In this document: one piece after another, positions 11,133 through 45,279 of the stretch | How positions within the stretch are numbered: position 1 is the stretch's first letter | How the letters are laid out: every line of letters starts with the position of its first letter | The notes under the pieces: generated by a model | What the model was told of the DNA's origin: nothing | What the model saw: the letters and a program-made list of their open reading frames with translations, nothing else | The model's database searches: none | Source: a virus | Virus record (IMG/VR): IMGVR_UViG_3300015607_002611 | Span: 9,143-73,142 of that record | DNA: 64,000 nt | Reading direction: 5' to 3' (one strand) | Translations under genes and position numbers: made by a program

Positions 11133-11136
11133 ATGT

Positions 11137-11149
11137 GATATATAAAAAT
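11137..11149 (+). promoter_or_regulatory. Candidate 'GATATATAAAAAT' promoter-like motif immediately upstream of ATG 11150
   Basis: The same motif class occurs upstream of the homing-endonuclease genes. It resembles T4 late TATAAATA. Confidence 0.3.
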
Positions 11150-11728: not shown

Positions 11729-11777
11729 AACAATTTGCCAATGATAGATATAAAAACAATAAAGTGTTTAAATTATA

Positions 11778-13307
11778 ATGTCACAAAAGAAACGAATAAT
11801 AAAATATTTAAAACCTGATATAGTCAAAAGTGTCGCCAACATTAATAAGAATATGTCTAGACCAGCCGTTCCTAAAAAGACAGTATCTATACCTACAAAT
11901 TATACAGAAATTCCGTTACCTAATTTAATCAATAATTTTACGAATAAGCCTAAAAATAATAGAGTTTTTATTATAGGTGGAGGTTCTTCATTAAGTGGAT
12001 TTGATTTTTCAATATTAAAAGACGAAGATATTATTGCAGTTAATAAATCAATTGAATACGTTAATTATGCAAAATATTTTGTTACAATGGATTATACATT
12101 TTTTACAAATCACCACAAATTAACAAATGCTGACTTTAGTATAATTAATAATAAGGCAGAACATACATATTTCATTATAAATACTGAACATAGTTATATT
12201 AAAAATATAAATGGTGTATATACTGATACTAGATTTAATTTAAAATATACAGCGCTTGAAAAATTTGAAGGTGTAATTAGAAGTCCTAAGACATACGACT
12301 CAAGTAGAGGATTTGGAAGTGATATACATACATTTACACACGGTAATAATAGTGGTTATTGTGCTTTACAATTAGCAATTGCTTTAGGTTATGAAGAAAT
12401 ATATTTATTAGGATATGACCTAAATATAAGTTCAAGTAAAACACATTTCCATAATGGCTATAAACAAGATGTTTCTAGATTTTCTAGGAACTTAATTGAA
12501 TATAGAACTATATTTTCTAAATCATTACAATTATATAAAGGCCCTAGTAAAATATACAGTTGCTCAAACAATAGTTATCTTAATACTTTTATAAAATATG
12601 TAGATATTAAAACTGTATTAAATGTACCAGTACAACGGCAAATAATTAGACCTGAAAATATAATTGTACCTGATAGTATTCCACCTATTAAAACAAGTGA
12701 AATGAATGGAGATTTAAGAGACCTTATTGTTATTGGTTATTATACAATTAATACTCCTTATGAAGCTGAAGCTCAGGGATTAATTAAATCTTGTAGTAAA
12801 TTAAATTTAAGACAAGATATTATAGGTGTACCAACGTTTGGTAATTGGCAATCAAATACTAGATTTAAAGCTAAATTTATGCTAGAGATGTTAGAAAAAT
12901 ATCCTGGTTCTAAATTAGTATATGTAGATGTTGATGCTGTAATCCATTCAAGATTAAATTTATTTAAAGATTATGATTATGATATTTCTGTTAGGTATCA
13001 AGATTTTAGATGGCGTAAAAATGAGTGTTTAAGCGGTACTATATTTATAAAATCAAATGAGAAAACCATTAAATTATGTAAACGTTGGATGGAAATAAAT
13101 GATTCTGAGGGTTCTAATGCTAAAACATTAGAACAATGGAATTTAGATAAGGCAATACAAGAGGGTATTAAAGACTATGGTTTAACATTTAAAAATTTAC
13201 CACCTGAATATACATTCATTTTTGATTCAATGAAGGCAATATATCCAAATGTTAAACCTGTAATTGAACATTTCCAAGCTAGTAGAAGATTTAGAAATAA
13301 AGTATAA
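11778..13307 (+). CDS. Two-domain glycosyltransferase: N-terminal CstII/GT42-like (DUF115-like) sialyltransferase-fold domain plus C-terminal DxD GT-A domain
   Basis: N-terminal 'NRVFIIGGGSSLSGFDFSILKDEDIIAVNKSIEY' resembles CstII 'VIIAGNGPSLKEIDYS...DVFRCNQFY'. C-terminal 'LVYVDVDAV' is a DxD motif. Confidence 0.5.
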   Translation: MSQKKRIIKYLKPDIVKSVANINKNMSRPAVPKKTVSIPTNYTEIPLPNLINNFTNKPKNNRVFIIGGGSSLSGFDFSILKDEDIIAVNKSIEYVNYAKYFVTMDYTFFTNHHKLTNADFSIINNKAEHTYFIINTEHSYIKNINGVYTDTRFNLKYTALEKFEGVIRSPKTYDSSRGFGSDIHTFTHGNNSGYCALQLAIALGYEEIYLLGYDLNISSSKTHFHNGYKQDVSRFSRNLIEYRTIFSKSLQLYKGPSKIYSCSNNSYLNTFIKYVDIKTVLNVPVQRQIIRPENIIVPDSIPPIKTSEMNGDLRDLIVIGYYTINTPYEAEAQGLIKSCSKLNLRQDIIGVPTFGNWQSNTRFKAKFMLEMLEKYPGSKLVYVDVDAVIHSRLNLFKDYDYDISVRYQDFRWRKNECLSGTIFIKSNEKTIKLCKRWMEINDSEGSNAKTLEQWNLDKAIQEGIKDYGLTFKNLPPEYTFIFDSMKAIYPNVKPVIEHFQASRRFRNKV

Positions 13308-13308
13308 T

Positions 13309-14064
13309 ATGGATAAGAAAGTTAGTATATTAATACCGGCATATAATCGCCAAGACTTTATTAAGACTGCTCTTAAAAGTTGTACTAGTCAAACATATAA
13401 TAATTTTGAGGTTATTGTATATGATGATGGTTCTACTGATGAAACTTTAAATGAAATTAAAGATTTTATAAAAAATTGTTCTATTAAAAATAAAAATAAG
13501 ATAAGAATAATTGAAGGTGTTACTAATAAAGGAATTGGTGTTGCACGGAATATTTTATTAAATTCCTTCGATAGTGAATATGCATGTTGGCTTGATAGTG
13601 ATGATATGATGACGTCGAATAGATTACAAGATTGTATTAATTACATGGATGTTAATCCTGAAACTGATATCATATACAGTAATATACAATGGTTTACTGG
13701 AAATAATCCATATAAATACGGTACAATTATATCACCTAATATAACAAGATATTCAAAGGATAAATTTGAATCTATTTCAAATAATTCAAGTTGTGCAAGC
13801 GGTTTTTTTAAATCAGATTTTAAAAAATATAAGTTTTTAGAAGGTTTAAATTTAGGCGGTGAAGATTCTCTTTGGTTATGGGATATAATTAAAGATGATA
13901 GGGTAATAAGACATATTGATAGAGTTTTATATTATTATAGAAGCCATGGTAATAGAATAGGTATAATTAAAAGAAAAGAAGAATTTAAAGAATTAAAAGA
14001 TAAAGAAGGTTTAATTGTATATAATTATCTAAATAATATAAAGAAAAATGAATCCGATAAATAA
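13309..14064 (+). CDS. Glycosyltransferase family 2
   Basis: 'VSILIPAYNRQDFIKTALKSCTSQTYNNFEVIVYDDGSTDET' and 'WLDSDDMM' (DxD). The ATG at 13309 right after the upstream stop is preferred over the track start at 13264. Confidence 0.8.
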   Translation: MDKKVSILIPAYNRQDFIKTALKSCTSQTYNNFEVIVYDDGSTDETLNEIKDFIKNCSIKNKNKIRIIEGVTNKGIGVARNILLNSFDSEYACWLDSDDMMTSNRLQDCINYMDVNPETDIIYSNIQWFTGNNPYKYGTIISPNITRYSKDKFESISNNSSCASGFFKSDFKKYKFLEGLNLGGEDSLWLWDIIKDDRVIRHIDRVLYYYRSHGNRIGIIKRKEEFKELKDKEGLIVYNYLNNIKKNESDK

Positions 14065-14692
14065 TTACTTTAATAAAATATACTGTGTTAATTTAGATAG
14101 ACGTCAAGAAAGATGGAAAGAAGCTTCAGATGAATTTAAAAAATTCAGTTTAGATGTAGAAAGATTTTCAGCTGTTGATGGTAGTAAATTAGATTTATCT
14201 AATATTAAAATGCAAGTTCTTAAATCTGATTCTTTACCGGGCGCTGTTGGTTGTAGTATGAGCCATAGAAATATAATCATAGACGCTAAAGAAAAAGGCT
14301 ATGAGAAAATTTTAATATTAGAAGATGATGTAGTATTTACTGACAATTTAATCGAAAGATTTGAAAAAGAAATTAATTCTTTACCTGAAGATTGGGATTT
14401 ATTTTATTTAAGTGCTAACAATCTTAAACCAGAAGCTTTAACTAAAATAAATGAAAATATATGGAGGACAAGATTTTCATATACTACACATTGTTATGCA
14501 GTTCATTCTAGAGTATATGATGTAATAATTAAAGGATTGGAAAATCTTGATGTTCCGGTTGACCAATTTTATAAAAACGTATTACAACAAGAATATAATT
14601 GCTATGTTATTAGACCTCATTTATCATGGCAACGCGAGGGTTATAGTGATATAATGAAAGGTAATAGATTTTACAAAAATATAAAAGAGTAA
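14048..14692 (+). CDS. Glycosyltransferase family 25 (LOS/LPS beta-1,4-galactosyltransferase-like)
   Basis: 'KIYCVNLDRRQERW...FSAVDGSKL...GAVGCSMSHRNII' matches the GT25 N-terminal signature. Confidence 0.65.
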   Translation: MNPINNYFNKIYCVNLDRRQERWKEASDEFKKFSLDVERFSAVDGSKLDLSNIKMQVLKSDSLPGAVGCSMSHRNIIIDAKEKGYEKILILEDDVVFTDNLIERFEKEINSLPEDWDLFYLSANNLKPEALTKINENIWRTRFSYTTHCYAVHSRVYDVIIKGLENLDVPVDQFYKNVLQQEYNCYVIRPHLSWQREGYSDIMKGNRFYKNIKE

Positions 14693-15276
14693 TGCCATAT
14701 TCAGATAAACATAAATTAATATTTATACATATTCCTAAAAATGCAGGTACTGCTATTACTAATGCACTTGAAATGAATGATATTGGACATCATTCATGGA
14801 AATATTATAAAAATAAATATCCTGAAAAATGGAATACATATACAAAAATTGCAGTTATTAGAAACCCATGGGATCGTGTAGTATCTAATTATGCATATGC
14901 TAGAATGGAAGAAAGTCACTGGCATTCAGTTTCAGGAAAAACTAGATATTCAAAACACCCAGACTTAGAATTATTAAAAGATAAATCGTTTGAAGAGTGT
15001 ATATCTATTTTAAAAAATAATCCAAGTTCTTTAAAACATCAGGGCTGGTCTTTACAAAAAGATTATATTACAGATGACAATCATATAGTAATTGATATTG
15101 TAATATTACAAGAAGATATTAATACTGTAATAAATAGATTAACAAACGTTAATGTGAGTAAAATAAATACAAGTAAAAGAGATGATTATAAAACTTACTA
15201 TAATCAAGATTTAATTGAAACAGTAGGTGAAATATACAAGGAAGATATAAAATTATTTAATTTTAAATATGAGTGA
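14692..15276 (+). CDS. PAPS-dependent sulfotransferase (carbohydrate sulfotransferase-like)
   Basis: 5'-PSB motif 'IHIPKNAGTAI' (HIPKTGGT-like) and 3'-PB-like 'RNPWDRVVSNYAY'. Confidence 0.6.
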   Translation: MPYSDKHKLIFIHIPKNAGTAITNALEMNDIGHHSWKYYKNKYPEKWNTYTKIAVIRNPWDRVVSNYAYARMEESHWHSVSGKTRYSKHPDLELLKDKSFEECISILKNNPSSLKHQGWSLQKDYITDDNHIVIDIVILQEDINTVINRLTNVNVSKINTSKRDDYKTYYNQDLIETVGEIYKEDIKLFNFKYE

Positions 15277-15817
15277 TATAAATAAAATGCTAAATACAAA
15301 TAATTGGTTTAGCTTTAAGGGATTTTATGAAAATGTAGCTAATATAAGTGAATATAAAACTTATGTTGAGTTAGGTGTATGGAAAGGACATTCAGTTAGT
15401 TATTTAGCAAAATGCCTTAAAAAAAGAAATGATACTAAAGTATATGCTGTCGATATATTTGAGAAGTGGGATAAAAATGAAAATGTAAAAGATGAAGTTA
15501 AACATATTAATGAAATCTATAATACTAATTTAAAAAATATGGGTGTTAGGGATTCAATTACTGACATTAAATCTATTTCATGGGATGCTGCATCTAAATT
15601 TGAAGATAATAGTATTGATTTTGTTTTTATTGATGCTGACCATACATATGAATCAGTGGTAAAGGACATAAATTCATGGTTGCCTAAAATTAAAAAGGGT
15701 GGAATGATATCAGGTCATGATTATTTCACTTCAGATGGTGTTAAACGAGCTGTAGTTGAATTATTAGGTAATGTTGAATCAATTAAAAAAGAAAACGTTT
15801 GGTATAAAAAAGTATAA
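15269..15817 (+). CDS. Class I SAM-dependent O-methyltransferase (TylF/MycF / CmcI-like sugar O-MTase)
   Basis: 'YVELGVWKGHSVSYL' and 'FVFIDADHTYESVVKDI...KKGGMISGHDY'. Confidence 0.6.
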   Translation: MSDINKMLNTNNWFSFKGFYENVANISEYKTYVELGVWKGHSVSYLAKCLKKRNDTKVYAVDIFEKWDKNENVKDEVKHINEIYNTNLKNMGVRDSITDIKSISWDAASKFEDNSIDFVFIDADHTYESVVKDINSWLPKIKKGGMISGHDYFTSDGVKRAVVELLGNVESIKKENVWYKKV

Positions 15818-16671
15818 TGTCTTATATTACTCCTAGAATAATAAAATTTGGTAAACCTGAAAATCATAGAAGTTCAATTGGACATGCAATGTATAATTAT
15901 ATAACAGCACTTTTGCTAGCTAAAAAATATAATTTAACATTCTTACATTCTCCATTTATAGCTGATTGTGAAAGATTTGAGAATGTATTAGGTTTAAATA
16001 AATTCTTTCCTAATTTTAAGACAATTAGAATGCCTGAATATAAGCTTCTACCTTATTGTAATTTTGGTCATCCTAATTTAGATGAAAATAAATATAATAA
16101 TAGTTTAAGGAGACTTTCAATTGAAATAAATAAGAAGACTACTAAAACTATATTCTTTACAAATAATCCAGCTGAACAGTTTCCGGGATTATTAATAAGA
16201 GAATCTGAATATCTTTCAAATATATTATCTGAAGCTTATTGGTCAGTTAATGGAAAATCAAAATTATATGATTATTCTAAAACAAACGTAGCTATCCATA
16301 TAAGAAGGGGTGATATCACTGAAAAAGAAAACACTGATAGATGGAAGGATAATAATCATTATATTAATATTATTAATAGTATAAAATCTAAAATACCTGA
16401 TGCTAGATTCTATATATTTTCTGAAGGTGAAATTGGAGATTTTAAAGAATTTAGTAAAGATGTTAATTTAATTTTAAATGGTAGTGATATTGAAGCATTT
16501 AATAATTTAGCAAGTTCTGATATATTAGTAACAGGACAGAGTACATTCTCTACAATTATTTCATATATTAATACAGGAACTATTGTTTATACACCATGTT
16601 TGAGTTTTACATTATTTGATGGTTTCAGTAAAAGGTTTATAAGATACGATAAAATAGATGAACAATTATAA
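15817..16671 (+). CDS. Fucosyltransferase-fold glycosyltransferase (GT11/GT23-like)
   Basis: 'VAIHIRRGDI' fits GT11 motif I (HVRRGDY). N-terminal 'SIGHAMYNYITALLLAKKYN' fits the GxLGNQMFxYA pattern. Confidence 0.45.
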   Translation: MSYITPRIIKFGKPENHRSSIGHAMYNYITALLLAKKYNLTFLHSPFIADCERFENVLGLNKFFPNFKTIRMPEYKLLPYCNFGHPNLDENKYNNSLRRLSIEINKKTTKTIFFTNNPAEQFPGLLIRESEYLSNILSEAYWSVNGKSKLYDYSKTNVAIHIRRGDITEKENTDRWKDNNHYINIINSIKSKIPDARFYIFSEGEIGDFKEFSKDVNLILNGSDIEAFNNLASSDILVTGQSTFSTIISYINTGTIVYTPCLSFTLFDGFSKRFIRYDKIDEQL

Positions 16672-17497
16672 AATATATTTTACTACTAATTGGAGTATAA
16701 GACATGATGTTTTCATGGATTACCTAAAAAGACAAACCCCTGACTTTTCAGGTTCTTGGGATAATATCATAATGGTTAATAAACAAAGAGAAGCTGACTA
16801 TATTATAGTACAAGATGGTTCAGATGAAAAGATCGAAGATATGTCTAAGGTTATATTTTTTGGACGTGAACCTAAACATATTAAATATTATTGTTGGGAC
16901 GATAAATTATGTAATAAAGTATATCATCATGAAAATAATAATTGCTGGCTTCCGCAAACTTGGTGGGTTGGTTTAAATTATAATGAGTTAATTAACTTAA
17001 AATATTTAAAGAATAAAAAATTTAGTATAATTGACTCTGGTAAAATATCTAAAGATGGTCATAAGAATAGATTAAACTTCATCAAATTATTTATAAATCA
17101 ATATCCAAATGATGTAGACTTATATGGTAAAATAAATGGAAATATATTACCCGAAAGAGATAAAAGCCTTGCATTATTAAATTATAAATATACTTTATCA
17201 ATTGAAAATGGAGTAACTGATAATTACTTCTCTGAAAAATTTGTAGACCCGTTATTATGTTTAACATTACCAATATATCATGGATGTAGAAGAATAGATA
17301 AATACTTTCCTAAAGGTTCTTATTATAAAATTGATATAAATAAGTCAGGTACTATTCAAGAAATATATAATTTGATTAACAGTAATTATGCTGAAGAGAA
17401 TATAGAAAATATTAAAGAAGCTAGAGATTTAATATTAAAAAAGTACAATATTTGGCCAACAGTAAAATTAGCAATAGAAAATAATATTAAAATATAA
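16658..17497 (+). CDS. GT10-like alpha-1,3-fucosyltransferase-fold glycosyltransferase
   Basis: 'YKYTLSIENGVTDNYFSEKFVDPLLCLTLPIYHG' matches the FucT motif (FxLxFENS...YxTEKxxxxL...PVxxG). Confidence 0.5.
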   Translation: MNNYKIYFTTNWSIRHDVFMDYLKRQTPDFSGSWDNIIMVNKQREADYIIVQDGSDEKIEDMSKVIFFGREPKHIKYYCWDDKLCNKVYHHENNNCWLPQTWWVGLNYNELINLKYLKNKKFSIIDSGKISKDGHKNRLNFIKLFINQYPNDVDLYGKINGNILPERDKSLALLNYKYTLSIENGVTDNYFSEKFVDPLLCLTLPIYHGCRRIDKYFPKGSYYKIDINKSGTIQEIYNLINSNYAEENIENIKEARDLILKKYNIWPTVKLAIENNIKI

Positions 17498-17498
17498 A

Positions 17499-17909
17499 AT
17501 GGAAAAAATTTATTCTAAAGTACAACCTGATAAATTATTACATATAATAGTAAGAAAGTCTGATATGGTTCCAGGAAGAACTGATATTGTAGACCCTGAG
17601 CATTTCATACAATGTTCCATGTTAAATATGGAAAAAGGTAAAACATTTAAACCACATAAACATATTTGGAAAGAGAGAAAAAGAGATGTAATAGCACAAG
17701 AAAGTTGGGTTGTTATACAAGGAAGTGTTAAATGTATATTTTATGATATTGATGATACATTAATAGCCGAGCCTGTATTATATCCCGGTGATTCAAGTTA
17801 TACACTTGAAGGTGGTCATAATTATGAAATACAAGAAGATAATACTCTTGTGTATGAATATAAGACAGGGCCTTATGAAGGTCAAATATTTGATAAAACA
17901 TTTTTATAA
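17499..17909 (+). CDS. Cupin-fold protein, possible NDP-ketosugar isomerase/epimerase
   Basis: Cupin motif 'PHKHIWKERKRDVIAQESWVVIQG'. Context is between the GTs/MTases and Gmd. Confidence 0.35.
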   Translation: MEKIYSKVQPDKLLHIIVRKSDMVPGRTDIVDPEHFIQCSMLNMEKGKTFKPHKHIWKERKRDVIAQESWVVIQGSVKCIFYDIDDTLIAEPVLYPGDSSYTLEGGHNYEIQEDNTLVYEYKTGPYEGQIFDKTFL

Positions 17910-17910
17910 T

Positions 17911-18459
17911 ATGGAAAAAAATAAAATTAACTTAGGTTGCGGTTGGAGAAATTTTGGCAAAGAATGGCTTCATATTGATAATGGTGATTACGATCATTTA
18001 GATATTAAATGTGATGTAAAGAAATTAGATTTACCTGATAATTACGCAGATTTAATTTACGTATCACATGTTATCGCATATTTTGATAGAAATGAAATAT
18101 GTGATGTTTTAAAAGAATGGAATAGGGTTTTAAAACCAGGTGGTACTTTAAGAATAGCTACGCCAGATTTTGAAGCAATGAGTAAACTTTATGTACAAGG
18201 GAGGATAGAACTTAAACAGATGTTGGGTCCAATGTATGGTAAAATGCCAATGGATGATATTACAATTTATCATAAAACTACTTATGATTTTCATTCATTA
18301 GCTACAGTATTATTAGATAATGGATTCAGGTATGTAAAAACATATAACTGGAAACAAACTGAACATGCACAATTTGATGACCATTCACAGGCTTATATTC
18401 CTCATATGGATAAAGAGAATGGTACACTTATTAGCTTGAATGTCGAATGTATTAAATAA
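17911..18459 (+). CDS. Class I SAM-dependent methyltransferase
   Basis: 'INLGCGWRNFGKEWLHIDN' (motif I) and 'WNRVLKPGGTLRIATP'. The ATG at 17911 is preferred to the overlapping track start at 17788. Confidence 0.6.
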   Translation: MEKNKINLGCGWRNFGKEWLHIDNGDYDHLDIKCDVKKLDLPDNYADLIYVSHVIAYFDRNEICDVLKEWNRVLKPGGTLRIATPDFEAMSKLYVQGRIELKQMLGPMYGKMPMDDITIYHKTTYDFHSLATVLLDNGFRYVKTYNWKQTEHAQFDDHSQAYIPHMDKENGTLISLNVECIK

Positions 18460-18460
18460 A

Positions 18461-19078
18461 ATGACAGAAGTAAATATAAATCTACTTAAAGATTCTTTTG
18501 ATAAAAGAAAGATTGATACAATAAGATATATTGTAAACGAATATGTTTCCAAGGGAGATGGGATTATTAATAAGAAATATTTTCAAGAATTAGGTAGTTA
18601 TACAAAAAGAAATGATGATACTGTAGATATAAATCTTTCAAATTATTTTTCTAGATTATTATATGCTCCTAATTTTGCAATATTAGATTATGTTATTAAA
18701 AATATAAATCAATTAAAAGATTTAAAATTCATTGATAATGGCGCTGGATTAGGTATACTTTCTATATTCTTAAAAACATTAAATATTGATTGTTATAATT
18801 ACGATAATTTTTCACAAATTAAAGATGTTACTTTTCATGAGAATGTTTTAAATAAAATGAATATTAAAATTCATCCTGTTTCTAGTCAAATACCAAATGA
18901 CTGTGAGGTATTAGTATGCTCTGGCATTTGGATTGATAATCCAGAATTCTTAAAAAGAAATTTACAATATGTTCTTTTAGATAGAAACCATGAAGATAAG
19001 GGAATTGGTCCTGAATTAACATCAGAATTTACTTTACTTGATAAATATAATACAATTAATGTTTATGGAAGAAAATAA
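18461..19078 (+). CDS. Methyltransferase-like protein (weak)
   Basis: 'FIDNGAGLGILSIFL' resembles the SAM-binding motif I. The ATG at 18461 is preferred. Confidence 0.3.
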   Translation: MTEVNINLLKDSFDKRKIDTIRYIVNEYVSKGDGIINKKYFQELGSYTKRNDDTVDINLSNYFSRLLYAPNFAILDYVIKNINQLKDLKFIDNGAGLGILSIFLKTLNIDCYNYDNFSQIKDVTFHENVLNKMNIKIHPVSSQIPNDCEVLVCSGIWIDNPEFLKRNLQYVLLDRNHEDKGIGPELTSEFTLLDKYNTINVYGRK

Positions 19079-19718
19079 AATTAAACCAATAGATTTTAGT
19101 TCAGTAACTGAATTTGAAAATCAAGTAGCCTCATTCTTTGGTGCTAAATATGCGATTGCTGTTGATTCATGTACACATGGTATAGAATTATGTTTGAGGC
19201 ATGTTAAAGCTGATTATATGTTTTCACCTAAGCAAACATATATCTCAGTTCCATTTCTTGCTAATAAACTAGGAATAGACTTAGTATGGACTGATTATGT
19301 ATGGCAGGATTGGTATACAGTATGGGGGAAAGGTGATTCTGGATTACAAAGAGTGTTAGATAAAAGAATTATAGACGCAGCTGTACTTTGGAAAAAGGAT
19401 AGTTATTTACCAGGCACATTTATGTGTCTTAGTTTTCAATATCAAAAACATTTAAGTTTAGGTAGAGGCGGAATGATTTTATGTGATGATGAAGTTTCTG
19501 CATTAGAATTAAAAAAGATGTCATATGATGGTAGATTACCAAATATACCATGGCGTTCACAAAACATTGATATATTTGGATATCATTATTATATGACACC
19601 TGAAACAGCATCAGTGGGATTACAAAAATTACCAGAGGCTATAGCAACTAAACCAAAACAATGGGTCATGAGTGATTGGCCAGATTTAACAAAAATGAAA
19701 GTATTTAATAATGAGTAA
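19059..19718 (+). CDS. DegT/DnrJ/EryC1-type sugar aminotransferase-like, short form
   Basis: 'FENQVASFFGAKYAIAVDSCTHGIELCL' (N-terminal signature) and 'LSFQYQKHLSLGRGGMIL' (PLP-Lys motif SFhxxKxxxxGxGGxI). Only ~220 aa, against ~370 for typical members. Confidence 0.45.
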   Translation: MFMEENKIKPIDFSSVTEFENQVASFFGAKYAIAVDSCTHGIELCLRHVKADYMFSPKQTYISVPFLANKLGIDLVWTDYVWQDWYTVWGKGDSGLQRVLDKRIIDAAVLWKKDSYLPGTFMCLSFQYQKHLSLGRGGMILCDDEVSALELKKMSYDGRLPNIPWRSQNIDIFGYHYYMTPETASVGLQKLPEAIATKPKQWVMSDWPDLTKMKVFNNE

Positions 19719-20700
19719 GAAAGCATTTATCACAGGAATTAATGGACAGGATGGTAGTTATTTAGCTGAATATCTATTATCATTGGGTTACGATGTACAT
19801 GGAATGATGAGACGTAATTCAGTACCTGAAAATCAAACAATGAGAATTGAATCAATTGAAAAAAATATTCAAACCCATTATGGTGATTTATTAGACCAAA
19901 CTTCAATCGAAAGATTATTAACAGAAATTAAGCCAGACGAAATTTATAATCTTGCAGCTCAGTCTCATGTAAGAATTAGTTTTGATGTACCTCAATTTAC
20001 AGTACAAACTAATTCAGTAGGTGTAATTAATATGCTAGAAGCATATAAAAGAATTGTACCAGATGCTAGATTTTATCAAGCAAGTTCATCTGAAATGTTT
20101 GGATTATCAGTAGAAGAAGATAATTTCCAAAGAGAAAGTACTATAATGAATCCTGTATCTCCTTATGGATGTAGTAAAGTATTTGGGTATAACGTAGTAA
20201 GACATTATAGAAGAGCTTATAATATACATGCTAGTAATGGTATTTTATTTAATCATGAAAGTCCTCGTAGAGGTTCTAACTTTGTAACTAATAAAGTAGT
20301 TAAGGGTGCGTGTATGATTAAGTTGGGTTTAGATAATAAGTTAGAATTAGGTAACATGGATTCTTATAGGGATTGGGGTCACTCTAAAGATTATGTTAAA
20401 GGGATGCATATGATTTTAAATCATGACGTTGCTGATGATTTTATTCTTTCGACAATGGAAACACATTCTGTTAGGGAAATGTGTGAAGTTGTATTTAGTT
20501 ATTTGGGTTTAAATTATCAAGATTATGTAGTTCAAAATCCTAAATATTTAAGACCTGAAGAATTACCTTATCTTAAAGGTGATTCTACTAAAGCAAGGAC
20601 AATTTTAGGTTGGAAACCAGAATATACATTTGAAGCTTTAATGCATGAAATGTGTGACCATTGGTTAGATGTATTACAAGGTAAAAAATCTTATAGATAA
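19711..20700 (+). CDS. gmd: GDP-mannose 4,6-dehydratase
   Basis: Near-full-length similarity to Gmd: 'KKAFITGINGQDGSYLAEYLL', 'YNLAAQSHV', 'FYQASSSEMFG', 'NGILFNHESPRRG', 'LGNMDSYRDWGHSKDYV'. Confidence 0.92.
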   Translation: MSKKAFITGINGQDGSYLAEYLLSLGYDVHGMMRRNSVPENQTMRIESIEKNIQTHYGDLLDQTSIERLLTEIKPDEIYNLAAQSHVRISFDVPQFTVQTNSVGVINMLEAYKRIVPDARFYQASSSEMFGLSVEEDNFQRESTIMNPVSPYGCSKVFGYNVVRHYRRAYNIHASNGILFNHESPRRGSNFVTNKVVKGACMIKLGLDNKLELGNMDSYRDWGHSKDYVKGMHMILNHDVADDFILSTMETHSVREMCEVVFSYLGLNYQDYVVQNPKYLRPEELPYLKGDSTKARTILGWKPEYTFEALMHEMCDHWLDVLQGKKSYR

Positions 20701-20963
20701 TGAAATTTGAAATATGGTCAGTAGGTATAGATGAAGGCGTATATACGCCTATGTTTAAGGAATTAGAGTCAGATGACTTTTCATATATTTATGCAACATT
20801 TTTAAAATTATCAAAGAATGGTATGTATATGATTACTACTAAGACTTTATTGCCAGCAAACGAGCTTAAAAATCAAAAGTGGATTTATGAATCACCTGAC
20901 GGTGGTAAAACAATTTATAAAAGAAAACGTTTAACAAATGATAGAGAACAACATGAGGGATAG
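20700..20963 (+). CDS. Hypothetical protein
   Basis: ATGA-coupled to gmd. Confidence 0.3.
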   Translation: MKFEIWSVGIDEGVYTPMFKELESDDFSYIYATFLKLSKNGMYMITTKTLLPANELKNQKWIYESPDGGKTIYKRKRLTNDREQHEG

Positions 20964-21549
20964 AATAAAAAATCTAATACAACAAGAATTAGATGCTATC
21001 AAAAATATTCCTATAAATGATACATTTGAAGATGCAGTTGAATTAATATACAATCATGTACATTTAGGAAGAGGTAAAATAGTAGCAGCAGGCATTGGAA
21101 AAGCTGGCCATATTGCACATAATATTGCCATGACATTATCTTCGACAGGGACGAGAGCAGTATTCATTCATCCTACCGAGGCACAACATGGTGATTTAGG
21201 TATATTAGGAAGAAATGATATTTTATTACTTGCTTCTAATTCAGGTAAAACAAGAGAAGTTTTAGAATTTATACAATTAGCAAAAAACATTTTTCCAGAC
21301 ATCAAAGTTATTTCAATTACTGGAAATAAAGAAAGTGAATTAGCTAATAAATCAACTGTAAATTTATATACAGGCGGTGCTAAAGAAATAGATAAATTTC
21401 AATTAGTCCCAACTACATCAACAACACTTATGACAATTATTGGAGATATTTTAGTTGTCGAATTAATGGATAAAATTAATTTTACTAAAGAACAATACCA
21501 ATTATTACATCATTCTGGATATATTTCTGAACAGCTAAAAAACAAATAA
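20938..21549 (+). CDS. kdsD: Arabinose-5-phosphate isomerase, SIS-domain only (KdsD/KpsF-like)
   Basis: 'GKIVAAGIGKAGHIAHNIAMTLSSTGTRAVFIHPTEAQHGDLGIL...LLLASNSGKTREV' parallels KdsD 'GMGKSGHIGRKMAATFASTGT...HPGEAAHGDLGM'. Confidence 0.8.
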   Translation: MIENNMRDRIKNLIQQELDAIKNIPINDTFEDAVELIYNHVHLGRGKIVAAGIGKAGHIAHNIAMTLSSTGTRAVFIHPTEAQHGDLGILGRNDILLLASNSGKTREVLEFIQLAKNIFPDIKVISITGNKESELANKSTVNLYTGGAKEIDKFQLVPTTSTTLMTIIGDILVVELMDKINFTKEQYQLLHHSGYISEQLKNK

Positions 21550-21550
21550 T

Positions 21551-22330
21551 ATGGAAAAACATTTTAAATTAATAGCAGGACCCTGTTTAATTGAAGACGA
21601 AGAAGTAGCTTTAAGAATTGCTGCAGAATGTAAATATATTGCTGATAGACTAGGAATAGAATATTACTTTAAAGGTTCTTATAAAAAAGCAAATCGAACT
21701 AAGCTTTCTAGTGTATCTTCTGGAATGACAGAAGAACGAGCTTTACAAGTTTTACATAAAATTAAAACTGTATTAGGTATACCTGTCGTTACAGATGTTC
21801 ATGAAACACATGATTGTGAAAAAGCTGCAAAATACGTAGACGTATTACAGATACCAGCATTTCTTTGTAGACAGACTGAGCTGCTTATAGCAGCAGGTAA
21901 AACTGGTAAGATAGTTAACATTAAGAAAGGTCAATTTATGGCACCAGAGTCAATGATTCATGCTCAAGAGAAAGTATATTCAACAGGTAATAAAAACGTT
22001 TGGCTTACAGAACGTGGAACTACATTTGGATATGAATATCTTGTAGTTGATATGACTTCAATGCCTAAAATGAGAAAGTTTAATGATAATGTTATAATGG
22101 ATTGTACACATTCAGTCCAAAGACCAAATCAGAACGGCCAGACAGGTGGAGACCCTGAAATGATAGAAACTATTGCTTTAAGTTCTATTGCAGCTGGCGC
22201 AACAGGATTATTCTTAGAAGTACATCCTGAACCTTGGAAATCTGGAAGTGATTCAACTAACATATTACAGATTGATAAATTAGAAGGTATTTTAGAGAAA
22301 TGTATTAAGGTTAAACAAGCCTTAAAATAA
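21551..22330 (+). CDS. kdsA: 3-deoxy-8-phosphooctulonate (Kdo-8-P) synthase
   Basis: 'GPCLIE', 'YFKGSYKKANRT', 'VVTDVHE', 'VDVLQIPAFLCRQTEL', 'VNIKKGQF', 'ERGTTFGY', 'DCTHSVQ' and 'LFLEVHPEP' are all KdsA signatures. Confidence 0.9.
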   Translation: MEKHFKLIAGPCLIEDEEVALRIAAECKYIADRLGIEYYFKGSYKKANRTKLSSVSSGMTEERALQVLHKIKTVLGIPVVTDVHETHDCEKAAKYVDVLQIPAFLCRQTELLIAAGKTGKIVNIKKGQFMAPESMIHAQEKVYSTGNKNVWLTERGTTFGYEYLVVDMTSMPKMRKFNDNVIMDCTHSVQRPNQNGQTGGDPEMIETIALSSIAAGATGLFLEVHPEPWKSGSDSTNILQIDKLEGILEKCIKVKQALK

Positions 22331-22331
22331 T

Positions 22332-22868
22332 ATGGCCAAAGTTTTAGAAAACATTAAAGGTACTCATGAATATTCAATACTTGTTGAATACATGAAACAA
22401 TTACAATATGATAAGTTAGTACACTCATCATATGCACCTAAGAGATTAGAAAAATGGTTCGGTTATTCATCTAATCTCCAGTCTATTAAAGATGGTAGAC
22501 ATGAATTAAAATTCATTGAAACAATACCTTACGTTTTCAATAGAATTAAAAACGATTATTATCCAGAATCTGATTCAATTTTAATTTGTAAAGGTGAAAA
22601 ACCAGATTCTGATACTTCAATTTCAAACCATAGAGACCACGGATGCTTTTTAGCAAAAGCTGTTATGTTAAATATTGGAATTTCTACATATACTGAAACT
22701 GATTATAATGGCTTAGTTAAATTATACGAACTGAATGATGGTGATATAATTGAAATTGATACAAAGATAATTCATGCATCAAGTCAAATAAGTGACCTGA
22801 GATTAAATGCAACTTTAAGAAAAGTTAGACCTGAATTTTTACCACGAAAAACAAACAATTTATTTTAA
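22332..22868 (+). CDS. Hypothetical protein, possible Fe(II)/2-oxoglutarate dioxygenase fold
   Basis: 'HRDHG' (HxD) with downstream 'IIEIDTKIIHAS' (second His). There is no HAD DxDG motif, so it is not KdsC. Weak. Confidence 0.25.
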   Translation: MAKVLENIKGTHEYSILVEYMKQLQYDKLVHSSYAPKRLEKWFGYSSNLQSIKDGRHELKFIETIPYVFNRIKNDYYPESDSILICKGEKPDSDTSISNHRDHGCFLAKAVMLNIGISTYTETDYNGLVKLYELNDGDIIEIDTKIIHASSQISDLRLNATLRKVRPEFLPRKTNNLF

Positions 22869-23617
22869 TGAGAACATTAGGAGTTATACCAGCAAGATAC
22901 GCTTCGACTAGATTGCCAGCTAAACCATTAGCTAAAATTAATGGTAAAACAATGATTGAATGGGTTTATGATGCTGCAATACAATCTGATTTAGATGAAG
23001 TTGTAGTTGCAACAGAAGATATTAAAATTTTTGATTACTGTAGTACTGTAGATATTAGAGTAGTTATGACTAGCCCAAATCACGTTTCAGGGACTGAAAG
23101 AATAATTGAAGTAACTAAAATGGAAGGTTACGATGATTTCGATATTATCGTTAATATACAAGGTGATGAACCGATGATTACTCCAAAAGATATTAATGAA
23201 CTTATTAATTCGATGAAAAATTGGCAATCAGTTTATCCAAATACAATTGGAACATTAGTTACTCTAATACAACCTCACGAATATACACAAAGAAGTTGCG
23301 TTAAAGCTTATCAGAAAGAAAATACTTCAGAAATTATAATGTTTACTCGAAGTAGCTTTTACAACTTCGAGTTAAATGAAGTTAATCGTTTCAAAAAACA
23401 TATTGGCATATATGCTTTTCCATCTAAGATTCTTGAAAACATTTCTGAACTTAAGGATAGAACTACAAATGAGATAGCTGAAAGTTTAGAACAACTTAGA
23501 TGGCTTGATAACGGAATGAGCATAGCAGGAGTTTTCACGTCAAATCAAACTATTTCAATTGATACACCAGAGGATTTAGAAAGAGTCCGTTTAAAATTAA
23601 AACATGAGCATATTTAA
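22868..23617 (+). CDS. kdsB: 3-deoxy-manno-octulosonate cytidylyltransferase (CMP-Kdo synthetase)
   Basis: 'LGVIPARYASTRLPAKPL', 'VVATED', 'SGTERI', 'IVNIQGDEPMI', 'IGIYAF' and 'IDTPEDLERVR' parallel E. coli KdsB throughout. Confidence 0.9.
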   Translation: MRTLGVIPARYASTRLPAKPLAKINGKTMIEWVYDAAIQSDLDEVVVATEDIKIFDYCSTVDIRVVMTSPNHVSGTERIIEVTKMEGYDDFDIIVNIQGDEPMITPKDINELINSMKNWQSVYPNTIGTLVTLIQPHEYTQRSCVKAYQKENTSEIIMFTRSSFYNFELNEVNRFKKHIGIYAFPSKILENISELKDRTTNEIAESLEQLRWLDNGMSIAGVFTSNQTISIDTPEDLERVRLKLKHEHI

Positions 23618-24110
23618 AAAAGTAAGAGAGTTAATTCCAACAATCGATAAATTACGACATGTGATTAAATCAATTAGTTATCGATTTTATTCAACGTGTA
23701 TTACAATTACAATAGCTAGCTTTGTAACAGGTAGTACCAAAACAGCATTTGCTATAGGCAGCGCAGATTTTTTTATAAAGATTTTCACTTATTATATTCA
23801 TGAAAGAATTTGGTTTTATATTCCATTTGGTTTACAAAAGCCAAGAAAAATTCATGCTGAAATTAGTTGGGAACCAAGTATAGAAGTTGGTGCACATGAA
23901 CAAATTGAATTTTTAGAATTTGAAGATAAAGATGTTCGTAAAAGAGTTAAAGTTACTAAATCTATGGAAGGTGTACACCCTATAGTATATAGAGCTTTAT
24001 TATCAACGAAAGATAAAAATACAAATAAGAGATATTCAGATGTTGTTCATGGTAGCAAAGAAGATATCGAAAAATTATTAAATGTTAAAATAAAAGAAGA
24101 TGGAAAATAA
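23604..24110 (+). CDS. Hypothetical membrane protein
   Basis: Two or three hydrophobic helices in the N-terminal half. Confidence 0.3.
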   Translation: MSIFKKVRELIPTIDKLRHVIKSISYRFYSTCITITIASFVTGSTKTAFAIGSADFFIKIFTYYIHERIWFYIPFGLQKPRKIHAEISWEPSIEVGAHEQIEFLEFEDKDVRKRVKVTKSMEGVHPIVYRALLSTKDKNTNKRYSDVVHGSKEDIEKLLNVKIKEDGK

Positions 24111-24315
24111 CATTCCTATAAAATTTAAAGATACTATAATTGGCTATGCTGATTCAGAAGGTAAAATTATCGAAATAATTAATAAAAAATTATGGGATAA
24201 ATTATTTACCAATAATCAAAATGTTTATATTTCAAGTAGGGGTTTAGGTGAAGTTAATAATGAAGGTACAATAATAAATGATAAGAGAATATCATTTGAT
24301 ATTTATGAAAAATAA
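24100..24315 (+). CDS. Small hypothetical protein
   Basis: ORF only. Confidence 0.25.
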   Translation: MENNIPIKFKDTIIGYADSEGKIIEIINKKLWDKLFTNNQNVYISSRGLGEVNNEGTIINDKRISFDIYEK

Positions 24316-24350
24316 TATTCTGGTTTATAGGTATTTCCGGCAATGAATCA

Positions 24351-24359
24351 ATATATAAT
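24351..24359 (+). promoter_or_regulatory. 'ATATATAAT' motif 18 nt upstream of homing-endonuclease-like gene
   Basis: Same motif class as upstream of the other HE genes. Confidence 0.25.
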
Positions 24360-24376
24360 TAAAATAATTTGATTAT

Positions 24377-25231
24377 ATGTACATAAGAAAGTGCCCAACT
24401 TGTCCACGTGAAACTAAATTTAAAAGTAAGAAAGCTTATAATAGAGCAATTGAATCAAACAGAAGCTGTAAACAATGTAGTATAAGAAATAATCTTTCTG
24501 GGTATAGAAATGATGTTTCAAATGGTTTAAAGCCTAATGGATTTTTAAATAAAACACATACAGAAGAATTTAAAAACAGGCTAAGAATAGAAAGAATAGG
24601 TAAAAAAGTTCATAATAGTAAATCTAAATCTAAAATTAGTAAAGCTTTATCCGGTGAAAACAATCCAATGTTTGGTAAATCTTTCTATGATATTTGGGTT
24701 GAAAAATATGGAAAAGAAGTTGCAGATAAAAAGTTAAAAAAATTTAAGTTTAAAATTAGTAAAGCAACTGAAGGTAAAAACAACCCAATGTTCGGTAAAC
24801 CTTCGCCCCAAGGAAGTGGTAACGGTTGGAAAGGTTGGTACAAAGGAACGTTCTTTAGAAGTTTACACGAGCTATCTTTCTTGATTAATTATATAGAAAG
24901 ATTTAAAATGCCATTTGAATCAGGTGAACAAGCTAAATGGGCAATTGAATATAGAAAACCTACAGGTGAAATTGGTACATATTTTTCAGACTATGTTATC
25001 AATGGGAAATATATGGTCGAAATAAAACCTGAAAAACTTAAAAGTAGCCCAACTAATAAAGCTAAACGCAAAGCAGCTGAAAAGTTTTGTAAAGCTAAAG
25101 GTTTAAAATATAAAATGATATCGCCGATATTATTAACTGAAACAAATATCCTATTTTTACATAAAAAGAATATAATTAAATTTACAGACATATATGAAAA
25201 ACGATTCAGAAAGCAATATACATTTTCATAA
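24377..25231 (+). CDS. Homing-endonuclease-like protein: N-terminal zinc finger, NUMOD3-type repeats, C-terminal PD-(D/E)XK-like motif
   Basis: 'CPTCPRE...CKQC', repeated 'ENNPMFGKS' and 'KNNPMFGKP' (NUMOD3-like), and 'FSDYVINGKYMVEIKPEK' (D...ExK). Confidence 0.45.
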   Translation: MYIRKCPTCPRETKFKSKKAYNRAIESNRSCKQCSIRNNLSGYRNDVSNGLKPNGFLNKTHTEEFKNRLRIERIGKKVHNSKSKSKISKALSGENNPMFGKSFYDIWVEKYGKEVADKKLKKFKFKISKATEGKNNPMFGKPSPQGSGNGWKGWYKGTFFRSLHELSFLINYIERFKMPFESGEQAKWAIEYRKPTGEIGTYFSDYVINGKYMVEIKPEKLKSSPTNKAKRKAAEKFCKAKGLKYKMISPILLTETNILFLHKKNIIKFTDIYEKRFRKQYTFS

Positions 25232-25853
25232 TTTAAGTGTTACCCGCGAGATGCGAGAAAAATTAAATGGTCATAAACCGTGTATAATTTGGTTCACTGG
25301 GTACAGCGGAAGTGGAAAATCCACAATAGCTAATATTTTAGATACTTATCTACATAAAGGTGGCTATCACACTTATATCTTAGACGGCGATAATATTCGC
25401 TCAGGTTTAAACAAGAATTTAGGTTTCAGTGACGATGACCGTAAAGAAAACATTCGCCGTATTAGTGAAGTAGCTAAATTATTTGCTGATTCTGGTACAA
25501 TTGTATTAACAGCATTCATTTCACCTTTTATTGAAGATAGACAAATTGCACGTGATATTCTTTCAAAAGATTTCAATTTTATTGAAGTTTATGTTGAAGC
25601 AGATTTAGAAACATGTGAGGCGCGTGACCCTAAAGGTCTTTACAAAAAAGCAAGAGCTGGTCAAATCAAAAACTTTACTGGAATTGATAGTCCTTATGAA
25701 GCTCCTATAAATCCAGAAATAACATTAAAAACTTCCCAGTATAGTCCAGACTTAAGCGCATATACAGTTCTTCATTATTTATACGATAATAATATTTTAC
25801 CTTTAGGACTAAAGCAAGATGCTGTTAATAATTCTAAAACATTAAGTCACTAA
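25194..25853 (+). CDS. cysC: Adenylyl-sulfate (APS) kinase
   Basis: 'IIWFTGYSGSGKSTIA', 'LDGDNIRSGLNKNLGFSDDDRKENIRR', 'VLTAFISP' and 'CEARDPKGLYKKARAGQIKNFTGIDSPYEAP' are near-identical in pattern to E. coli CysC. Confidence 0.93.
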   Translation: MKNDSESNIHFHNLSVTREMREKLNGHKPCIIWFTGYSGSGKSTIANILDTYLHKGGYHTYILDGDNIRSGLNKNLGFSDDDRKENIRRISEVAKLFADSGTIVLTAFISPFIEDRQIARDILSKDFNFIEVYVEADLETCEARDPKGLYKKARAGQIKNFTGIDSPYEAPINPEITLKTSQYSPDLSAYTVLHYLYDNNILPLGLKQDAVNNSKTLSH

Positions 25854-25855: not shown

Positions 25856-26077
25856 ATGGCAAAAACACCAAGCACATCAGAACATTTAAACGAAGTTTTA
25901 AGTGATACTCAACAATTAAATGATATTAATTCTAGTATTTTACATGCTGAAAAAACATTAGAGTATTTGAATAATATGTATAAAGAAAAGCCTCAGAATC
26001 CTGTAGGTTCAGCTATTAATGTAGTTGAATTATTAATAATGAATTTAAAAAAATTAAAACCAGTAGCAAAAGATTAA
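25856..26077 (+). CDS. Small hypothetical protein
   Basis: ORF only. Confidence 0.25.
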   Translation: MAKTPSTSEHLNEVLSDTQQLNDINSSILHAEKTLEYLNNMYKEKPQNPVGSAINVVELLIMNLKKLKPVAKD

Positions 26078-26078: not shown

Positions 26079-26561
26079 ATGAATAATTGGAGTAAAACAA
26101 ATCACGGTGGCCAAAAATTAGCCAAAGTAGAAGATAAGAAGCAATATGCTATCTTTGTAGGAAGATTTCAACCATATCATTATGGTCATATCTCTTTAAT
26201 TGAACAAAAGATTAATGATGGAATCCCTGCTTTAATTATGGTAAGAGATTTACCTGCAGATGAAAAAAATCCATTCACAACTGAACAAACTGTACAGATG
26301 ATTGAAAAATATCATAGTGCAAAAGGTCATGATGTAAAGGTAATGATTATACCTGATATCGAAAGTGTAAATTATGGTAGAGGTGTTGGATATGAAGTAA
26401 ATGAATTTACACCACCTGAGAATATTAGATTTATCTCTGCAACAAAAATCAGAGAGTCTATTAAAACTGGAAATACTGAATGGCATCAAATGGTCCATGA
26501 AAGTATACAAGACGATGTAATAAATTACTTAAAAGAAAACGATCTATTACTTTCTAAATAA
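26079..26561 (+). CDS. nadM: HxGH nucleotidyltransferase, archaeal/NadM-type NMN adenylyltransferase-like
   Basis: 'AIFVGRFQPYHYGHISLIE' matches the archaeal NMNAT signature GRFQPFHKGH. 160 aa. Confidence 0.5.
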   Translation: MNNWSKTNHGGQKLAKVEDKKQYAIFVGRFQPYHYGHISLIEQKINDGIPALIMVRDLPADEKNPFTTEQTVQMIEKYHSAKGHDVKVMIIPDIESVNYGRGVGYEVNEFTPPENIRFISATKIRESIKTGNTEWHQMVHESIQDDVINYLKENDLLLSK

Positions 26562-27057: not shown

Positions 27058-27270
27058 ATGGAAAATAATGTATATAATCATTTAGCAACGTGGGCTAAAC
27101 TTATTAAAGAACAGAATGAAAATCCTAAAAAATCTAATTCAGTTGAATTTGACTTTTTACCAGGTAAAATTTTTCATGGTGTACAAATACTTAATGCTAG
27201 TGATGATTTTAATAAAAACGAACTTAATTTTAAATTAATATACGATCATTGGGAAAATAAATTAGATTGA
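27058..27270 (+). CDS. Small hypothetical protein
   Basis: ORF only. It converges on the antisense HE gene. Confidence 0.25.
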   Translation: MENNVYNHLATWAKLIKEQNENPKKSNSVEFDFLPGKIFHGVQILNASDDFNKNELNFKLIYDHWENKLD

Positions 27271-31131: not shown

Positions 31132-31163
31132 GAATCAATAACAATTAAAAACAAAAAAGAAAA

Positions 31164-44577: not shown

Positions 44578-44578
44578 A

Positions 44579-44974: not shown

Positions 44975-45003
44975 GAGAGTATATAATAAAATAATTTATT
45001 AAA

Positions 45004-45252: not shown

Positions 45253-45256
45253 TCCG

Positions 45257-45279
45257 AAGCCTCGATATAATCGAGGCTT
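45257..45279 (+). promoter_or_regulatory. Stem-loop (AAGCCTCGAT-ata-ATCGAGGCTT) abutting promoter -33; no U-run
   Basis: 10-bp perfect stem whose 3' arm supplies the CTTTGGGGG element. Confidence 0.4.

Follow-up and report, generated by a model that had tools for sequence, protein, structure and literature searches.

The sequence analysed here is a 64-kb stretch of viral DNA (IMG/VR record IMGVR_UViG_3300015607_002611, positions 9,143 to 73,142), hereafter the window. It carries a gene for adenosine 5'-phosphosulfate (APS) kinase, CysC, 10 kb downstream of a sulfotransferase gene and close to genes for a small adenylyltransferase (hereafter NT) and a DUF2061 membrane protein (Table 1). The G+C content was about 29%, the + strand held nearly all genes, and Pfam matches identified phage-type genes, namely a sigma-70 region-2 protein, GIY-YIG/NUMOD homing endonucleases, T4-type RNA ligases, Thg1-like and RlaP proteins. 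The window is part of a larger genome, and the sequence scanned comprised the window, the 10 kb upstream of it (L005, in which position 10001 corresponds to window position 282) and the complete genome of a relative, LR756500. Cultured and deposited phages offered no close DNA match to the region by megablast, and an exact 38-mer of cysC had no counterpart in IMG/VR. At the protein level, the window was syntenic with LR756500.1, an uncultured 462-kb phage with a G+C content of 24%. About 15 genes stood in common order, including those for the sulfotransferase (50% identity), KdsD, KdsA, KdsB and CysC (53%). The identical CysC protein was present in many metagenomes, on contigs up to 50-200 kb, and the window therefore belongs to a recurrent large phage.

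The original prediction named CysC and a sulfotransferase 10 kb upstream of it, and both assignments held. CysC matched Pfam APS_kinase (PF01583) at 238.1 bits (cut-off 21.1) and the NCBIfam models NF003013 (adenylyl-sulfate kinase) at 284.6 bits (cut-off 163) and TIGR00455 at 260.1 bits (cut-off 138.7). Identity to E. coli CysC was 54%. The P-loop GYSGSGKST, LDGDNIR (DGD) and AFISPF (FISP) motifs were present in columns that were invariant in the alignment of the two proteins. Judged by its sequence, the product is a bona fide, orthodox APS kinase.

The sulfotransferase matched the Pfam Sulfotransfer_2 profile (PF03567) at 53.3 bits (cut-off 22, E 5.6e-14, profile positions 6-252) and also phrog_3347, 'Galactose-3-O-sulfotransferase'. 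Both motifs for binding 3'-phosphoadenosine 5'-phosphosulfate (PAPS) were intact: the 5'-phosphosulfate-binding motif HIPKNAGT (PKxxGT type) and the 3'-phosphate-binding motif RNPWDRVVS (RxPxxRxxS type). K16, A18, G19, T20, R57, N58, P59, D61, V64 and S65 were invariant among five viral homologues. The enzyme was 47% identical to one that stands beside a CysC cassette in two other viral loci (L029/L030), and a sequence search for a homologue of solved structure found none. Since the gene lies in the middle of an island of sugar-building and sugar-tailoring genes (11.1-23.6 kb), it is a reasonable inference that the enzyme acts on a carbohydrate acceptor.

Two further observations concern sulfotransferases. 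A second possible PAPS-using enzyme, a 420-aa open reading frame (ORF), lay about 3 kb upstream of window position 1 (L005 6828-8090). It matched Sulfotransfer_3 in its C-terminal part only (30.4 bits, cut-off 27) and carried the 5'-phosphosulfate-binding-like motif GSRNGSS and the 3'-phosphate-binding-like motif YVHLSRGFAQS. An uncultured 484-kb phage, LR756508.1, matched the window sulfotransferase at two places (39% identity) around 312825-313442. It gave no match to CysC at E <= 1e-5, so its dependence on host PAPS is presumed.

No homologue of the ATP sulfurylases Sat or CysD/CysN was found in the window, in line with the original prediction. Pfam scans of all + strand window ORFs of at least 90 aa (E <= 1e-4) gave no ATP-sulfurylase, PAPS_reduct or CysN-type GTPase (GTP_EFTU) match. 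Six-frame tblastn (E <= 10) with E. coli CysD, CysN and CysH and with Sat gave noise only, in the window as well as in the 10 kb upstream and the whole LR756500 genome. The CysD and CysN probes were taken from L008. The validity of the Sat probe (~380 aa) was confirmed by a match to PDB ATP sulfurylases at E 1e-111. The same probes picked up CysD/CysNC (L227, L249) and Sat::CysC in other viral contigs, and the negatives in the window are therefore meaningful. A search of the whole genome for sat and cysDN, which had been proposed as a check, thus came out negative for these three sequences; the rest of the phage genome was not covered.

The place of the 'missing' ATP sulfurylase is probably taken by NT, a non-canonical form encoded 230 bp downstream of CysC. 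The genes for DUF2061, CysC and NT lay within 3 kb on one strand, and NT carried the motifs GRxQPxHxGH, GRxVGY and SATxIR. Their order differed from the usual CysC-NT-DUF2061, with a homing endonuclease and two small ORFs interposed. The endonuclease gene overlapped the start of CysC by 38 nt; it stands outside the proposed pathway and was not present in the cassettes of the relatives examined. When IMG/VR was searched by CysC, 13 loci were found at about 60% identity, and NT adjoined or was fused to CysC in 12 of them, with DUF2061 also adjacent in 10 of these 12. Across these viral cassettes, NT was more conserved (69-73% identity) than CysC (58-61%).

A census of 80 viral loci found via NT gave the same picture. 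CysC was adjacent to NT in 62 loci and fused to it in 15, and in the remaining 3 the retrieved locus ended less than about 250 bases from NT. DUF2061 was adjacent in 67 of the 80, a sulfotransferase (two families probed) lay within 3 kb in 33, and CysH was adjacent in none. The neighbours in 77/80 loci were CysC, DUF2061 and sulfotransferases, not NAD salvage genes. Neither Sat nor CysD lay within 8-10 kb of any NT locus examined. In a reverse census of viral CysC loci (the best 80 of 170 relatives, 10-kb range), NT was found in 44/80, DUF2061 in 47/80 and a sulfotransferase of the same two families in 17/80, and CysH lay within 10 kb of none. Canonical enzymes were found in four loci, CysD/CysNC in three and Sat::CysC in one (a giant-virus metagenome-assembled genome); all four were without NT, and NT and canonical enzymes never occurred together (p = 0.037). 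A match to E. coli CysN adjoining NT in L149 (E 1.6e-12, ~600-aa ORF) was weak and was read as another GTPase.

Sulfotransferases were also linked to the cassette directly. In L029/L030, a glycosyltransferase 25-sulfotransferase-glycosyltransferase 10 order lay 1.5 kb upstream of CysC-NT-DUF2061. On a 411-kb contig, CysC-NT-DUF2061 stood back to back with a Sulfotransfer_1/3 gene, and many other viral contigs had a sulfotransferase directly beside the CysC cassette. Searching for homologues of DUF2061 gave close relatives only and no new architectures; the DUF2061 protein was recorded on a contig of up to 104 kb. The cassette is common in large aquatic phages and is also present in several cellular phyla.

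At cassettes with a Sulfotransfer_1/3-type enzyme, we also observed a 296-aa protein without a Pfam family (L033 9729-10619; about 30 viral loci), which always accompanied that enzyme. At these loci, the viral CysC-NT-DUF2061 cassette was surrounded by genes for very large Laminin_G_3 proteins, an arrangement hinting that components of virions or adhesins are sulfated.

We then consider the NT family itself. A word-indexed search gave at least 7,995 relatives, the best 120 at 68-91% identity, and an exhaustive search of 50%-identity cluster representatives gave 411 at E <= 1e-10. The family occurred in aquatic phages, Flavobacteriales/Bacteroidota, Nitrospiraceae, Dadabacteria, candidate phyla radiation (CPR) bacteria, and DPANN and other archaea. 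Its signature, GRxQPxHxGH ... VRD ... NP ... IPDIxSVNxGRxVGY ... ISATxIR, was kept in viral, bacterial, CPR and archaeal members, and the window protein carried GRFQPYHYGH ... NPFTT ... SVNYGRGVGYE ... ISATKIR. The HxGH and SxTxxR ATP-binding motifs were invariant in the family. As they are common to the whole superfamily, they do not discriminate in favour of a nicotinamide mononucleotide (NMN) adenylyltransferase (NMNAT). NT scored far below the cut-offs of the NMNAT models, with 50.6 bits against 127 (NF002243) and 43.9 against 181.2 (TIGR01527). The NT family profile aligned to solved NMNATs only in the N-terminal half, which binds ATP, and in the SxTxxR helix, and the profile-to-PDB alignment ended before the 'FNSIW' segment of archaeal NMNATs, which we take to be NMN-binding, with a nicotinamide-stacking tryptophan. 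In the pairwise alignment with 1f9a, the NMNAT sequence 'iefnsiwvsy' faced 'SVNYGR-GVGY', the family-invariant 'VNxGRxVGY' standing in place of 'FNSIW'. These features indicate that NT is, as far as its sequence tells, a minimal but intact adenylyltransferase whose acceptor site has changed. The chemistry expected of it (NTP + X-phosphate-like anion -> NMP-X + pyrophosphate) would fit sulfate adenylylation. Sub-threshold matches to the Pfam ATP-sulfurylase model PF01747 in five family members covered superfamily motifs only and were not counted as evidence.

The partners of NT point to APS. An APS_kinase domain was present in 46 of the 150 nearest 50%-cluster representatives of NT. By Pfam, APS_kinase::NT fusions were found in viruses (L026, L085) and Nomurabacteria (L161), and NT::APS_kinase fusions in Woesearchaeota (L172) and Methanosarcinales (L166); the occurrence of both orders implies independent fusion events. 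DUF2061::APS_kinase was found in a virus (L076, Pfam) and in Ferruginibacter (L170, phmmer domain matches only), and NT::DUF2061 in P0300 (Pfam). Among species-representative genomes, 56 loci had NT with the motif GRG[VI]GY. CysC was adjacent in 18 of these and fused in 6, CysH was adjacent in 3, and the 29 with neither were mostly from Dadabacteria/Thermodesulfobacteriota. More distant NMNAT-like homologues without the motif (n=24) had neither CysC nor CysH adjacent or fused in any locus. CysC or CysH thus stood beside or fused to NT in 27/56 motif-bearing versus 0/24 motif-less loci (Fisher p = 5e-6).

Three cellular contexts were especially informative. In Nitrospiraceae (L125; also L118, L140), an Rrf2 regulator, a NIR_SIR/TusA sulfite reductase and a PAPS_reduct-type CysH were followed by NT. 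This CysH, read from its sequence, carries an ECC...CxxC motif, presumably the Fe-S motif typical of APS reductases. By its predicted gene content, this is a sulfate-assimilation operon with NT where the ATP sulfurylase would stand. In Bacteroidota (L123), the order was CysC, NT, an ORF without assignment, CysQ, a Wzx-type flippase and Sulfotransfer_1/3, and in Methanosarcinales (L166) it was a sulfotransferase, an epimerase, CysQ, NT::CysC and CysC. APS is the sole metabolite common to all informative NT partners. A CysC gene with a short NT (both phmmer-confirmed) was also seen in a marine group III euryarchaeote (L164 4954-9615), apparently between S-adenosylhomocysteine hydrolase/S-adenosylmethionine synthetase and serine hydroxymethyltransferase genes as read from the translations, a sulfur/one-carbon context.

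NT is likely to form APS, because fusions and operons tie it to APS-consuming enzymes in viruses, bacteria and archaea. We lean towards a reading in which the phage makes its own activated sulfate through a self-contained sulfation system, from NT (APS) through CysC (PAPS) to the sulfotransferase and a phage-specified glycan. First, NT would adenylylate sulfate (ATP + sulfate -> APS + pyrophosphate), replacing Sat or CysDN. CysC would, from what is known of its family, convert APS to PAPS and also pull the unfavourable first step. The DUF2061 protein may, as the fusions suggest, keep the NT/CysC pair at the membrane or aid sulfate supply. The Sulfotransfer_2 enzyme would then use PAPS to O-sulfate the glycan, for which a modified envelope polysaccharide of the host or a glycoconjugate of the virion is the most likely candidate, and the by-product 3'-phosphoadenosine 5'-phosphate would be handled by host CysQ.

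The two halves of this reading differ in strength. The better support is for a role of CysC in sulfation and not in assimilation, which we hold with considerable confidence, because viral CysC loci lack CysH, sulfotransferase neighbours are frequent, and CysQ and sulfotransferases are partners in cells. The proposal in the original prediction that CysC supplies PAPS to the phage sulfotransferase for glycan sulfation is likewise backed by synteny, both in L029/L030 and through the sulfotransferases that flank other cassettes. The wider proposal seems to us evenly balanced between right and wrong. According to it, the NT family is a third, unrecognised class of ATP sulfurylase made up of ~150-aa NMNAT-like adenylyltransferases, and the viral cysC known as an auxiliary metabolic gene (AMG) belongs to a portable PAPS synthase at the membrane, which supplies phage sulfotransferases rather than aiding sulfur assimilation by the host.

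Several findings weigh against an APS-forming NT. The window protein did not match PF01747 even at E <= 1, and its nearest characterised relatives in sequence and fold were archaeal NMNAT and phosphopantetheine adenylyltransferase (PPAT). The AlphaFold model was mediocre (pLDDT 72.7, and below 50 in the diagnostic loop 96-112). Foldseek placed it with NMNAT/PPAT at TM ~0.55, with yeast ATP sulfurylase at rank 39 (probability 0.33); as this gives merely the NMNAT/PPAT fold, structure cannot discriminate between the functions. In 33/80 viral CysC loci, neither NT nor a canonical enzyme lay within 10 kb, and CysC evidently can therefore work with host APS. LR756500 has CysC and the sulfotransferase without NT and without DUF2061, and for this phage the use of host APS is the natural reading. 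On Dadabacteria/Thermodesulfobacteriota chromosomes (e.g. L126), NT stood among unrelated housekeeping genes, so that the context is uninformative.

The main alternative takes up these points. Host Sat or CysDN would make APS, phage CysC would convert it to PAPS for the sulfotransferase, and NT would be an NMNAT of NAD salvage or an adenylyltransferase unrelated to sulfate. NMNATs are the best matches of NT, there is a NUDIX gene 11 kb downstream, NMNAT-Nudix salvage genes are known from phages, and both LR756500 and the 33 viral loci without NT agree with it. However, it leaves unexplained the near-obligate adjacency to CysC, the fusions in two orders, the operon with CysH and sulfite reductase, and the clusters with CysQ and sulfotransferases. 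The NMNAT scores are far below cut-off and the NMN-binding segment is not conserved. Moreover, Pfam scans found no NAMPT or other NAD-salvage gene in the window, and the motif-less NMNAT-like homologues never adjoin CysC. We therefore regard this alternative as unlikely, although it deserves to be taken seriously. The original prediction had the phage relying on the host for APS in this way. That claim lost its support, as CysC sits in a conserved NT/DUF2061 cassette whose NT is likely APS-forming, although this phage might yet use host APS.

It is also conceivable, but improbable, that NT takes part in APS/PAPS metabolism without making APS. It could be a regulator or scaffold of CysC, or it could adenylylate another acceptor that is later 3'-phosphorylated by a CysC-like kinase, as in the PPAT/dephospho-CoA kinase pair. 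Gene context shows coupling to APS-using enzymes and not the reaction itself, the fold is that of PPAT/NMNAT, and shortened kinase::NT fusions (phrog_10255, below) may have diverged in substrate. On the other hand, the window CysC is an orthodox APS kinase, the invariant catalytic motifs of NT speak against a mere scaffold, and the Nitrospiraceae operon combines APS reductase with sulfite reductase and lacks a kinase altogether. Least probable of all is that the phage cysC is an AMG boosting assimilatory sulfate reduction for cysteine supply, with the sulfotransferase 10 kb away unrelated: passages of earlier studies describe viral cysC in this way and as transcribed (bioRxiv 10.1101/2021.01.05.425418; PMC10914622), but the absence of CysH from all 80 viral CysC loci, against 44 with NT, 47 with DUF2061 and 17 with a sulfotransferase, the sulfotransferases directly flanking the cassette in many viruses, the CysQ and sulfotransferase that accompany the module in cellular genomes, and the fact that hosts with direct reduction of APS have no further use for PAPS all argue against it.

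An NT that forms APS can be compared with several known systems. The closest architectural analogues are PAPS synthases and Sat::CysC proteins (PF01747 + PF01583; PDB 1x6v, 2gks), which combine an adenylyltransferase with APS kinase, as fusions or as neighbours and in both orders, and the known Sat/APS-kinase fusions are thus paralleled by those of NT. Sat and NT belong to one superfamily, with an HxxH-type motif and a C-terminal SGTxxR-like motif. However, the Sat probe is ~380 aa and NT ~150 aa, and NT lies outside PF01747, nearest to NMNAT/PPAT. Archaeal-type NadM (TIGR01527, PRK01153; PDB 1f9a, 1ej2) shares its fold, size, GRxQPxHxGH and SxTxxR with NT, whereas NT has the GRxVGY loop at the acceptor site and has CysC, CysH, CysQ and sulfotransferases as partners. 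In rhizobia, Nod factors are sulfated through NodP/NodQ, paralogues of CysD/CysN-CysC, and the sulfotransferase NodH. This is the closest functional analogue, a dedicated PAPS supply beside a carbohydrate sulfotransferase in a glycan-modification set, apart from housekeeping assimilation. NodPQ is a CysD/CysN-type, GTPase-coupled ATP sulfurylase, whereas the phage-borne system has a 160-aa NMNAT-like NT and DUF2061 with CysC.

Sulfate assimilation, sulfate dissimilation and sulfation all begin with the activation of sulfate, which to our knowledge is carried out by two enzyme types only, Sat and CysDN. If NT is indeed a small third type, it would fill pathway gaps such as the Nitrospiraceae operon without a nearby sat and CysC in reduced CPR/DPANN genomes. 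In that case, viral cysC would be counted differently in sulfur-cycle surveys, and a compact PAPS-regeneration module would be available for biotechnology. For phage biology, it would mean virus-directed sulfation of glycans (in other cassettes possibly of proteins) that is recurrent in large aquatic phages and independent of host sulfur. The predicted combination of PAPS synthesis, a sulfotransferase and a non-canonical activating enzyme is of greater interest than had first been stated.

PHROGs held no family for the window NT, CysC or DUF2061, with the sole exception of phrog_10255, 'kinase', which contains Xylella phage Sano gp35 (L198 5647-6384) and Stenotrophomonas phage DLP_6 AAY80_227 (L199 4593-5324). 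The N half of these proteins resembles the window CysC and the C half the window NT, with the motifs GRYQPWHAGH, GRDVGY and ISATAIR (ISATxIR). They differ in that the kinase part is shortened to ~120 aa and diverged, and NT identity is 31-39%. DLP_6 also encodes an annotated sulfotransferase. Since Xanthomonadaceae phages in culture carry phrog_10255, the sulfate-activation hypothesis has a tractable system there.

In passages of previous reports, viral cysC is a known AMG, found mainly in marine and freshwater samples, enriched in phages with large genomes and transcribed in situ (bioRxiv 10.1101/2021.01.05.425418; COBRA study, PMC10914622). The gene class is the same as here, but cysC was read there as assimilatory sulfate reduction, and the passages of these studies on cysC, sulfation and PAPS do not mention an NT/DUF2061 cassette or a link to phage sulfotransferases. 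Giant viruses (Megavirinae) have their own sugar-nucleotide pathways, glycosyltransferases and putative sulfotransferases (cited in PMC11625862). These are eukaryotic viruses, and a dedicated PAPS-synthesis cassette is not mentioned in the relevant passages of that article. A literature search found nothing that links viral cysC to phage sulfotransferases; its journal coverage was incomplete and a prior description is possible. With the same coverage, nothing was found on the function of DUF2061 or on an NMNAT-like or cytidylyltransferase-like ATP sulfurylase, nor was anything relevant found on LR756500 or on sulfate assimilation in Dadabacteria.

The features of the glycan island and the cassette are listed in Table 1. 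The gene order from 11135 to 14692 was syntenic with LR756500, and so were the homologues of the CMP-Kdo genes (20938-23617). KdsD, KdsA and KdsB were present in this latter segment, which had no recognisable KdsC phosphatase.

Table 1. Genes of the glycan island and of the CysC-NT-DUF2061 cassette (window coordinates; GT, glycosyltransferase family)
Feature	Coordinates	Strand	Match or remark
GT29-like	11135-11728	+	Pfam Glyco_transf_29, 45.3 bits
Nucleotid_trans-type transferase, 509 aa	11778-13307	+	Pfam Nucleotid_trans, 34.9 bits
GT2	13264-14064	+	Pfam Glycos_transf_2, 114.9 bits
GT25	14048-14692	+	Pfam Glyco_transf_25, 54.6 bits
Sulfotransfer_2 sulfotransferase, 194 aa	14692-15276	+	Predicted PAPS consumer
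O-methyltransferase, TylF/CmcI-type	15269-15817	+	Pfam
GT11-like	15817-16671	+	Pfam
GT10 fucosyltransferase-like	16658-17497	+	Pfam
WbuC-like cupin	17499-17909	+	NCBIfam WbuC cupin, below cut-off
Methyltransferase (second in island)	17788-18459	+	Pfam
ORF without family	18440-19078	+	
Short DegT aminotransferase	19038-19718	+	Pfam
GDP-mannose 4,6-dehydratase	19711-20700	+	Pfam
KdsD-like SIS	20938-21549	+	Pfam SIS, 68.5 bits
KdsA	21551-22330	+	Pfam DAHP_synth_1, 207.4 bits
178-aa ORF without family, between KdsA and KdsB	22332-22868	+	
KdsB	22868-23617	+	Pfam CTP_transf_3, 138.5 bits
DUF2061 membrane protein, two predicted transmembrane helices and hydrophilic tail	23604-24110	+	Pfam DUF2061, 50.9 bits
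Homing endonuclease (NUMOD3 and TnsA-like N domain)	24377-25231	+	Pfam; inserted between DUF2061 and CysC
APS kinase CysC, 219 aa (APS + ATP -> PAPS + ADP)	25194-25853	+	Pfam, NCBIfam
73-aa ORF between CysC and NT	25856-26077	+	No Pfam, NCBIfam or PHROGs family; position variable in relatives
NT, 160-aa HIGH-motif adenylyltransferase, candidate non-canonical ATP sulfurylase	26079-26561	+	CTP_transf_like, 34.3 bits

The window held at least five homing endonucleases of TnsA-like/NUMOD3 and GIY-YIG/NUMOD types. Besides the one within the cassette, they lay at 27262-27861 (- strand), 33329-34075, 36914-37633 and 52421-53125. Just 3' of the cassette, at 27950-30489, were genes for ArgG (argininosuccinate synthase) and ArgH (argininosuccinate lyase), and an arginine deiminase (ADI)/amidinotransferase-like gene lay just upstream of the window (L005 8093-9034); all belong to arginine/citrulline metabolism and are carried here by a phage.

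An RNA-repair block (43546-55495 and 63509-64000) contained three RNA ligases (Rnl1-like, Rnl2-like and RNA_ligase families), a Thg1-like guanylyltransferase, a PolB-exonuclease-like protein, a RlaP nucleotidyltransferase, a metallophosphatase and two HAD_SAK_2 proteins. A 155-aa ORF with a collagen-like Gly-X-Y run was found at 4413-4880, and an HSP20 small heat-shock protein was encoded at 10691-11089. An NfeD-like ORF and an SPFH/Band-7 pair with a long Ala/Glu/Lys-rich coiled region lay at 30553-32855.

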